Shown piece by piece: positions 7,165-9,519 of a stretch of 64,000 nt of DNA. Location of the stretch: contig OZ024751.1 in NCBI GenBank assembly GCA_964016885.1, forward strand, positions 23,560,001 to 23,624,000, given 5' to 3'. The stretch is from Eledone cirrhosa (Eukaryota). Both the position numbers and the translations under genes were made by a program. Below the pieces are notes generated by a model. It had not been told where the DNA came from and ran no database searches. It saw nothing but the letters and a program-made list of their open reading frames with translations. Position 1 is the stretch's first letter. The number at the start of each line of letters is the position of its first letter.

Positions 7165-7495
7165 CATGGAACTCTTTTAACCATCTTTTGATCTTATATA
7201 TTATGTATACTCCAGTCCTACAAACTGTAGAGTGCTTCTTATCCGATATCTGCATTGCTTTATTGTACTACAATAAAACTCACCTCCTACATATATATAT
7301 ATATATATATATATATATATATATATATATATATATATTGGAATAAATGCTCTGAAATAGCGATATATATGTGAATATAGACATAGAATATTCGAAAATA
7401 TTCTGTATGTTTATAATAAACATTTTGAAGACCTAATCGCTATAGAATAGAATACGTCACGTATTACAATTAGATTCTCGATAAAAGCAAGGGAA

Positions 7496-8158
7496 GTAAT
7501 CTACGCGTTTCATTCTCGTAAGAAATCATCAGGACTACATATCCAGTGCTTTTATCGAGAATGACACAGCTAGAGACTTATAGAATACTTAGCTGTGTAC
7601 AGGAACTGGTTTGAAAGAGCGGTTGCCGGTCCGGCAGAAATTAGAAATTGGAATAAATGCTCTGAAATAGCGATATATATGTGAATATAGACATAGAATA
7701 TTCGAAAATATTCTGTATGTTTATAATAAACATTTTGAAGACCTAATCGCTATAGAATAGAATACGTCACGTATTACAATTAGATTCTCGATAAAAGCAA
7801 GGGAAGTAATCTACGCGTTTCATTCTCGTAAGAAATCATCAGGACTACATATCCAGTGCTTTTATCGAGAATGACACAGCTAGAGACTTATAGAATACTT
7901 AGCTGTGTACAGGAACTGGTTTGAAAGAGCGGTTGCCGGTCCGGCAGAAATTAGAAATTGGAATAAATGCTCTGAAATAGCGATATATATGTGAATATAG
8001 ACATAGAATATTCGAAAATATTCTGTATGTTTATAATAAACATTTTGAAGACCTAATCGCTATAGAATAGAATACGTCACGTATTACAATTAGATTCTCG
8101 ATAAAAGCAAGGGAAGTAATCTACGCGTTTCATTCTCGTAAGAAATCATCAGTACTAC
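7496..8158 (-). ncRNA. Three hammerhead ribozymes (7496-7538, 7806-7848, 8116-8158)
   Basis: Minus strand reads GTAGTC-CTGATGA-TTTCT TACG AGAAT-GAAAC GC GTA-GATTAC. The third copy has a stem I substitution. Confidence 0.85.
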
Positions 8159-8490
8159 ATATCCAGTGCTTTTATCGAGAATGACACAGCTAGAGACTTA
8201 TAGAATACTTAGCTGTGTACAGGAACTGGTTTGAAAGAGCGGTTGCCGGTCCGGCAGAAATTAGAAATTGGAATAAATGCTCTGAAATAGCGATATATAT
8301 GTGAATATAGACATAGAATATTCGAAAATATTCTGTATCTATATTCACATATATATCGCTATTTCAGAGCATTTATTCCAATTTCTAATTTCTGCCGGAC
8401 CGGCAACCGCTCTTTCAAACCAGTTCCTGTACACAGCTAAGTATTCTATAAGTCTCTAGCTGTGTCATTCTCGATAAAAGCACTGGATAT

Positions 8491-9153
8491 GTAGTCCTGA
8501 TGATTTCTTACGAGAATGAAACGCGTAGATTACTTCCCTTGCTTTTATCGAGAATCTAATTGTAATACGTGACGTATTCTATTCTATAGCGATTAGGTCT
8601 TCAAAATGTTTATTATAAACATACAGAATATTTTCGAATATTCTATGTCTATATTCACATATATATCGCTATTTCAGAGCATTTATTCCAATTTCTAATT
8701 TCTGCCGGACCGGCAACCGCTCTTTCAAACCAGTTCCTGTACACAGCTAAGTATTCTATAAGTCTCTAGCTGTGTCATTCTCGATAAAAGCACTGGATAT
8801 GTAGTCCTGATGATTTCTTACGAGAATGAAACGCGTAGATTACTTCCCTTGCTTTTATCGAGAATCTAATTGTAATACGTGACGTATTCTATTCTATAGC
8901 GATTAGGTCTTCAAAATGTTTATTATAAACATACAGAATATTTTCGAATATTCTATGTCTATATTCACATATATATCGCTATTTCAGAGCATTTATTCCA
9001 ATTTCTAATTTCTGCCGGACCGGCAACCGCTCTTTCAAACCAGTTCCTGTACACAGCTAAGTATTCTATAAGTCTCTAGCTGTGTCATTCTCGATAAAAG
9101 CACTGGATATGTAGTCCTGATGATTTCTTACGAGAATGAAACGCGTAGATTAC
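8491..9153 (+). ncRNA. Three hammerhead ribozymes (8491-8533, 8801-8843, 9111-9153)
   Basis: GTAGTC CTGATGA TTTCTTACGAGAAT GAAACGCGTA GATTAC. Stem I extends via TCTCGATAAAAGCA/TGCTTTTATCGAGA across an internal loop. Confidence 0.87.
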
Positions 9154-9519
9154 TTCCCTTGCTTTTATCGAGAATCTAATTGTAATACGTGACGTATTCT
9201 ATTCTATAGCGATTAGGTCTTCAAAATGTTTATTATAAACATACAGAATATTTTCGAATATTCTATGTCTATATTCACATATATATATATATATATATAT
9301 ATATATGTATATATATATGTGTCTATATATATATATATATATATATATATATTTATATATATATATATATATATATATATATATATATATATATATATAT
9401 ATATATATATATATATATACATACATGTATATATATGTATATATATGTATATATGTATATATATATATGTATATATATATATGTGTGTAAAGATATAGTG
9501 AGTAGTGGGTCATAAAAAT

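Follow-up and report, generated by a model that had tools for sequence, protein, structure and literature searches.

Retrozymes of animals are made up of short units, whose reported sizes are 350-390 bp in Mytilus, 220-245 bp in Acropora and 330/350 bp in the axolotl (PMC7229834; 10.64898/2026.07.22.740005), and the canonical metazoan hammerhead type, as defined in PMC4209133, possesses a short palindromic helix III that works through dimers. The axolotl hammerhead HHR_Amex2, in which stem II rests on a U-U base, was reported to reach 22% cleavage as a monomer in one hour and more as a dimer (PMC7229834), while one of nine predicted Xenopus retrozyme dimers was cleaved in vitro (2026 preprint, 10.64898/2026.07.22.740005). 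The machinery by which animal retrozymes are spread has so far been argued from shared hammerheads, co-occurrence and pLTR trees, and the link to Penelope-like elements (PLEs) is in print as a hypothesis (2026 preprint; PMC7229834; PMC7761336).

PLE insertions themselves leave a recognizable structure, consisting of partial tandems, an inverted 5'-truncated neighbour and a tail of 30-40 bp which is often present at one end (PMC8557442). In the same source (TA)n targets are described for Hydra and Naiad PLEs, among them Hydra-1_Obim, a Hydra family of Octopus bimaculoides. A PLE protein was reported to cut and extend both strands of AT-rich DNA from two neighbouring start sites in the RNA, the tail being the sequence between these sites (PMC11167929).

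In the current work, these systems are compared with a locus in a stretch of probable octopus DNA of 64 kb, the whole of which is referred to as the window. It is probable that the locus arose by a single recent insertion event, in which a PLE RT-endonuclease likely copied a 310-bp hammerhead repeat, itself likely a non-LTR retrozyme, into (TA)n. It would then be a canonical retrozyme bearing a physical PLE insertion scar, adjoining what appear to be true PLE ends with the same scar.

Layout of the array and anatomy of its hammerheads

Tandem Repeats Finder resolved the 310-bp units into two arrays, at 7337-8338 (3.2 copies) and 8327-9286 (3.1 copies), with 99% matches and with (AT)24 and (AT)102 as flanks, and the two arms form an inverted repeat that is 98% complementary. 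When compared base by base with one reference unit, the whole array (7337-9286) contains 3.23 antisense and 3.06 sense units, the single substitution between the arms being located at position 8153, outside the junction. The six near-identical non-coding units, three per strand within (TA)n, that had been noticed in a previous sequence-only reading were confirmed, and the longest ATG-started frame of the looped unit is 30 aa. The features of the array are as follows (window coordinates, strand, feature):

7291..7336, no strand: left (TA)n target tract, doubling as 3' flank for the adjoining family-B insertion
7337..8338, minus: left arm, 3.23 units of 310 bp, 3' end facing outward, at position 165 of the unit (numbered from the cut site)
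7337..7362, minus: tail of 26 nt (26-34 nt), left arm only, located by mirror comparison of the ends
7496..7538, minus: type I hammerhead, intact, predicted cut after 7502
7806..7848, minus: type I hammerhead, intact, predicted cut after 7812
8116..8158, minus: type I hammerhead with an intact core and a disrupted first pair of stem I (substitution at 8153)
8311..8338, no strand: inversion junction joining the arms 5'-5' at the imperfect hairpin of the unit (centre 8324/8325)
8338..9286, plus: right arm, 3.06 units, tail-less 3' end at unit position 139
8467..8555, plus: hammerhead module of the first sense unit, predicted cut after 8527
8801..8843, plus: type I hammerhead, intact, predicted cut after 8837
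9111..9153, plus: type I hammerhead, intact, predicted cut after 9147
9287..9482, no strand: right (TA)n target tract

The attributes by which a retrozyme may be recognized are a tandem unit of ~150-450 bp with a GC content below 50%, the presence of a canonical type I hammerhead in two or more units in succession, a non-coding monomer that lacks an LTR structure and pairs with itself, and many dispersed copies. The repeat under study is 310 bp long, has a GC content of 34.5% and occurs as 3+3 units; it is non-coding, no LTR structure was found for it, and its monomer is predicted to be self-paired (z -3.9 as a linear and -4.5 as a circular molecule, with none of 200 shuffles equally good). 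Dispersed copies are represented by at least ten contigs with a TA junction in the public run X1, which is possibly the source sample of the window. Within the 64-kb window there is no further copy of this unit outside the array and no tRNA gene, and a bacterial promoter scan, a type of scan that is ill-suited to animal DNA, gave matches at chance level.

Hammerhead cores are present in all six units (plus strand, 8497, 8807 and 9117; minus strand, 8152, 7842 and 7532), five of which passed the type I descriptor, for which the chance level amounts to 0.05 matches per simulated 64-kb window (60 simulations) and to one in 20,000 shuffled units. The claim that every unit carries a complete type I hammerhead therefore holds for the cores and for the full pairing of five units, the exception being the unit at 8152 on the minus strand, where the change at 8153 breaks the stem I pair beside an otherwise intact core. 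No Rfam hammerhead model matched the region at gathering score, nor was one among the five matches at E up to 10 (8300-8700), and this proposed check consequently failed to recover the ribozyme.

In the first sense unit, stem I consists of 6 bp (8491-8496/8528-8533) followed by the core from 8497, and is extended through internal loops by an outer helix of 16 perfect bp (8467-8482/8540-8555), which corrects a previous count of 14 bp; the position of the predicted cut, after the GUA at 8527, was correctly assigned. Stem II comprises 4 bp (8505-8508/8513-8516) resting on a U-U mismatch where a G-C pair is usual, with a UACG loop closed by U-A, and helix III is the palindrome ACGCGU (8521-8526), which provides 1-2 bp and for which a self-duplex of -9.5 kcal/mol was computed. 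In the window variant the predicted pairing is 0.97 for stem I and 0.08 for stem II. Considering that helix III is palindromic with 1-2 bp and that helix II has a U-U base, the ribozyme is predicted to cut poorly alone and better as a dimer, and it is likely, as far as folding predictions allow, that the weakness of helices II and III makes cleavage dependent on dimers.

The inversion junction and other hammerhead insertions of the window

The arms of the array are oriented such that their 5' ends meet and their 3' ends face outward, both of the latter abutting (TA)n; target-site duplications of retrozymes, where present, exceed 4 bp, and the two flanks to be compared here are both (TA)n. The imperfect hairpin at which the arms join occurs in every unit; left-arm sequence reaches 8338 and right-arm sequence starts from 8338, where 11 of the last 12 bases of the top strand are able to pair with their mirror (one of them as G-T) before the mirror copy follows. 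The tail is confined to one arm and its length is given as 26-34 nt because the other end falls in a ATATATAT tract, so that it lies at the short edge of the 30-40-bp range of PLEs. The array hence displays a partial tandem with an inverted, 5'-truncated copy at its 5' end, a tail at one end and a (TA)n target, all of which are attributes of PLE insertions, and judged from this arrangement the inversion is best read as the insertion scar of a PLE rather than as a regulatory design. The earlier suggestion of mobilization by Penelope-like elements gains structural support from the head-to-head arms, the one-sided tail and the target.

The predicted fold of the whole array is a 950-bp duplex of -1715 kcal/mol, as compared with -244 and -282 kcal/mol for the arms folded apart, in agreement with the ~950-bp hairpin that had been expected. 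All three sense hammerheads are paired with the antisense arm in this fold, and the antisense arm is transcribed first; the expectation that read-through from either side would meet sense ribozymes is not supported as stated. For these two reasons, read-through of the array is predicted to produce a ~950-bp duplex, and long double-stranded RNA would be a more likely product than circles unless the unit has an internal promoter.

Other hammerhead families were detected in the window by means of the same descriptor. Nine other hammerhead-bearing insertions served as a comparison set, and the loci to which the text refers are (window coordinates, strand where assigned, feature):

6675..7290, no strand: family-B locus with a perfect 187-nt mirror copy at 6675-6861
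6867-7290: B1, arms inverted (6867-7033, 7043-7290), one of them with a tail of ~80 nt
34417-34745: B2, head-to-head, one-sided tail
38349-38676: C2, head-to-head, one-sided tail
42097-42437: B3, head-to-head, one-sided tail
59168..59213, plus: relic of a related family, ends at a TA tract
59228-59479: E, older inverted insertion with arms 74% alike, head-to-head, one-sided tail
59497..61709, plus: decayed, 5'-truncated Hydra-type PLE with RT thumb, CxCx5C-type linker and endonuclease, frameshifts and a long AT-rich 3' region

Five of the nine (B1, B2, B3, C2 and E) are arranged head-to-head with a one-sided tail, and C1, C3, C4 and D are single; the tails, of ~80-100 nt in families B, C and E, exceed the published 30-40 bp. 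Family C comprises four diverged hammerhead-bearing 3' ends with a fixed end in (TA)n (27209-27400, 38339-38690, 61523-61709 and 62595-62752), and family B, with its long helix II and three inverted insertions in (TA)n, each with a one-sided tail of ~80 nt, is likely the 3' end of a PLE. The minimal pLTR-type hammerhead, with a long helix II, fits families B and C better than it fits the 310-bp unit. Of 17 3' ends selected by hand, counting the two of the array and the relic, 15 are situated no more than 5 nt from (TA)5+, as compared with a background of 9.5% of the window; this figure is partly circular, because the selection was made visually and was not blind to the TA boundary.

Family D is a single hammerhead (32048-32250, minus strand) whose stem II has 5 bp and is closed by G-C and whose cut triplet is GUU; a (TA)n end lies ~170 nt away. 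At the B1 locus, 6675-6861 mirrors 6862-7048 perfectly over 187 nt, the centre being a TA tract. This mirror copy includes part of the B1 junction; it would represent a secondary fold-back, real or artefactual, and falls outside the PLE layout. The segment 59330-59473 had been considered as a retrozyme-like rod (z -9.9) and was rejected, since alignment showed it to consist of the two diverged inverted arms of family E.

The Hydra-type PLE remnant, located 50 kb from the array, terminates in a family-C hammerhead (C3) followed by (TA)n, and two of its frames match protein P0001 (E 3e-24). The latter contains the RWK, DKT, CxCx5C, CxxC and CxH motifs that define Hydra, CxCx5C being present in 106 of the 151 retrieved proteins, and the assignment is based on these motifs together with the alignments printed in the supplement of Craig et al. 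2021 (PMC8557442); Pfam names neither the PLE pieces nor P0001. For an ORF with RT and GIY-YIG, a tblastn search with a Hydra-type protein gave 59497-60296 as the sole match in the window, the array itself containing none. No autonomous partner of the 310-bp unit was found in the window, where the Hydra remnant is broken, and the unit resembles families B, C and D and the UTRs of the remnant no more than shuffles do. Four short motifs had no match in the Craig 2021 supplement, the line-wrapped text of which makes this a weak search (PMC8557442). The relic does resemble the unit: 28 of 32 nt at 59170-59201 match unit positions 123-154, the region of both array ends, a match reached by none of 200 shuffles.

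Several further features of the window were recorded. Two 166-nt copies, 97.6% alike and with a hammerhead-like core, are located on the minus strand at 23777-23942 and 24300-24465, and additional palindromes at 62797-62913 (117 nt, 94%) and 26481-26545 (65 nt, 83%). Homogeneous tandem arrays occur at 42840-44162 (102 bp x 12.9) and 47758-48490 (38 bp x 19.3), the 102-bp unit being a fragment of a repeat that is present near 10668-10800 and 50560-51023. On the minus strand, 29081-31298 contains ORF pieces of up to 463 aa with weak Pfam matches, which we take to resemble the remnant of a Helitron Rep/helicase. An intact single-exon ORF of 416 aa (57886-59136, plus strand) matches the octopus chemotactile receptor CRT1 with an E value of 1.9e-132, as compared with 7e-40 for squid CRB1, and the nest of PLE-type insertions starts within ~35 bp of the stop codon of this CRT1-like ORF. 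From this match an octopus is the likely host, and the earlier reading of a probable cephalopod is supported.

The following route would account for the array. Copies of the repeat would be transcribed as multimers, which would be cut mainly via dimeric hammerheads, and the resulting monomers would perhaps be ligated into circles, as PMC7229834 suggests for retrozymes, a ligated monomer circle then staying closed. Both strands of the target would then be nicked by a (TA)n-targeting PLE, the best candidate being one of the Hydra type, and reverse transcription would be initiated close together, at positions 139 and 165 of the unit. One template would serve for the copying of some three units, and joining of the cDNA ends would take place through the self-complementary hairpin of the unit. 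Alternatively, and about equally likely, one tailed cDNA would fold back at the same hairpin and generate the same product. Two-site priming is favoured because single C copies terminate at their tail-less site and because in B2 and C2 the tail-less arm extends further 5' than the tailed arm, whereas fold-back explains the equal turn numbers of the array more simply, as both arms carry about three units.

Copies in public sequencing runs and alternative origins

Public runs were screened by means of 27 sampled words of the unit, and of the 24 runs listed four (X1, X5, X11 and X23) were examined as contigs or reads. A word content of 0.70-0.96 was observed in 20 of the 24, with 18 organism labels and 17 studies; runs X21 and X22 contain almost none of the sampled words, which is no proof of absence, and no RNA run carrying the unit is among the 24. 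The raw run X23 (organism E) yielded no read in 1,938 million letters, an amount that constitutes no test of absence.

Run X1, possibly the source sample of the window, provided 597 contigs, of which 350 are at least 99% alike to the unit, 133 at 95-99%, 96 at 90-95% and 18 below 90%. The contigs are ~60 nt long, and neither depth sums nor contig counts give a copy number. At least ten of these contigs stop at 8666 (equivalent to 9286) and continue into TA, and thus the tail-less end recurs, while among the ends listed one contig stops at 8697, 5 nt beyond the tail site; the tail-less end lies in an internal ATATATAT tract, so that microhomology alone could make it recur. From X1, the family is seen to comprise many copies, most of them young, and to have an end that recurs. 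The earlier view of a young retrozyme-like family agrees with this contig identity and with all testable sequence attributes, and the youth of the family is supported by the sequence comparison.

Only four variants exceed 2% of the X1 depth, i.e. 8504 T>A (23%), 8509 T>A (99.6%), 8512 G>A (75%) and 8649 C>T (4.5%), three of which are located in stem-loop II, and the sequence of loop 2, for which conserved tertiary contacts with loop 1 are an attribute of retrozymes, differs among copies whereas the core is constant. The UACG cap attributed to stem II was read correctly from the window copy and is a rare variant in this run, as A is found at 8509 and at 8512 at the above proportions. The 8504 change restores an A-U pair at the base of stem II, and for the triple variant the predicted stem II pairing increases to 0.91 from 0.08. 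Given the rarity of the UACG loop and a stem II that is mostly unformed in prediction, the window copy may be a weak ribozyme variant. All six units of the array share T8509, which accounts for 0.4% of X1 depth, and this fits copying from a single template.

A single locus cannot separate a circular from an uncut linear template, and the unit could instead be a pLTR that became detached from an autonomous PLE, now forms a short tandem and is copied as an uncut linear multimer with a weak or idle hammerhead and with no circular stage. Insertion in vitro was reported to need no hammerhead cleavage, uncut RNA being the main substrate (PMC11167929), retrozymes are derived from pLTRs in the 2026 preprint, where eight of nine did not cleave, and the equal number of turns in the two arms agrees with a linear template of finite length. 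We nevertheless regard this origin as unlikely, since the hammerhead is of the canonical retrozyme type, unlike the long-helix-II minimal type of families B and C; moreover, the common X1 variants cluster in stem-loop II and spare the core, the array is without an attached ORF, and none of the X1 contigs, which are short, enters unlike sequence.

The spread of near-identical units over 18 organism labels bears on a more radical proposal, in which the unit would be a transmissible viroid-like RNA circle moving between animal species, copied round and round into octopus DNA by a Hydra-type PLE enzyme. A single contig of unit length came from each of the runs X5 (340 nt, depth 34) and X11 (331 nt, depth 9.6), and these contigs wrap round by 310, are without flanks and possess differing stem-loop II haplotypes, contig data of this kind being unable to separate a circle from a tandem. 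When viral and metagenome contigs were scanned for exact matches to the pattern of the hammerhead core or of the 3'-end motif, none of the four scans returned a locus. The spread of labels is explained more simply by trace carry-over of an abundant repeat or RNA, by prey DNA or by close octopus relatives, and a moving RNA circle is quite improbable.

Similarly, there is very little probability that the tandem is real and the inversion, and perhaps the number of units as well, arose as an artefact of library preparation or assembly, by fold-back at an AT-rich hairpin. The geometry of the junction is exactly that of a fold-back, the perfect 187-nt mirror centred on TA lies 500 bp upstream and outside the PLE layout, and no strand-change joint is among those listed for X1, the contigs of which, at ~60 nt, cannot test the junction. 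Against an artefact, the flanks differ, the arms end at two sites of which one recurs in at least ten other contigs, and the layout corresponds to the published PLE pattern (PMC8557442); it is also found in older insertions with diverged arms (4 differences in 167 positions in B1, 74% identity in E), which argues that the head-to-head layout as such is not artefactual. Finally, an ordinary satellite grown by unequal crossover and later inverted by a replication template switch, with the hammerhead as a passenger, can practically be dismissed. Such growth is discussed for retrozymes (2026 preprint), and unstable tandem repeats abound in the window, but this origin leaves unaccounted for that the 3' ends are fixed in (TA)n, that one arm alone has a tail and that unrelated hammerhead families share the layout.

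With insertion by a PLE as the preferred reading, the mode of copying becomes a countable question, in that ends, tails, arm lengths and within-array uniformity may discriminate circle-templated from linear-templated copying, and twin priming from fold-back.

Comparison with described systems

Animal non-LTR retrozymes are likewise short, low-GC, non-coding tandems with one canonical hammerhead and a self-paired monomer (PMC7229834; 10.64898/2026.07.22.740005). The U-U base of stem II recalls HHR_Amex2 and the palindromic helix III recalls HHR_Amex1 (PMC7229834); the 310-bp unit differs from known retrozymes in its octopus host, its new sequence and the combination of both weak helices. Head-to-head arms, a one-sided tail and a (TA)n target are not described in the examined parts of the retrozyme papers, and the word 'inverted' does not occur in the main text of PMC7229834.

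The same tandem, inverted neighbour, tail and (TA)n are found in EN+ PLE insertions, namely those of the Hydra clade (PMC8557442; Hydra-1_Obim) and of Poseidon PAc (PMC11167929), which also share with the array a hammerhead upstream of the 3' end. In contrast to these insertions, the array contains no RT/endonuclease ORF, its entire unit measures 310 bp, its tail is 26-34 nt long, and it has no homology to the PLE terminal repeats of the window. Minimal pLTR hammerheads (Cervera & de la Pena 2014, PMC4209133) have a dimer-type helix III like that of the unit, and their motif pairs, 100-700 bp apart on opposite strands, correspond to the arrangement in families B and C. That minimal type is defined by a helix II of 7-8 bp, a 5' unpaired base and a short helix I, and the 310-bp unit departs from it, as its 6-bp helix I, long outer helix and 4-bp helix II are canonical. 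The non-autonomous PLEs of Chlamys, such as MRC1 (PMC8557442), are non-coding units assembled into multicopy head-to-tail arrays by PLE machinery; unlike the array they belong to green algae, in most cases lack canonical hammerheads, and have 3' ends in common with autonomous partners that are known.

The searched literature, to which Repbase, Dfam and two supplements did not belong, names no octopus or other cephalopod retrozyme and no such scar on a retrozyme, and the array would add a cephalopod member to a known element class. Judged by its sequence, the 310-bp repeat is likely an animal non-LTR retrozyme, new in sequence and belonging to a class that is already known.
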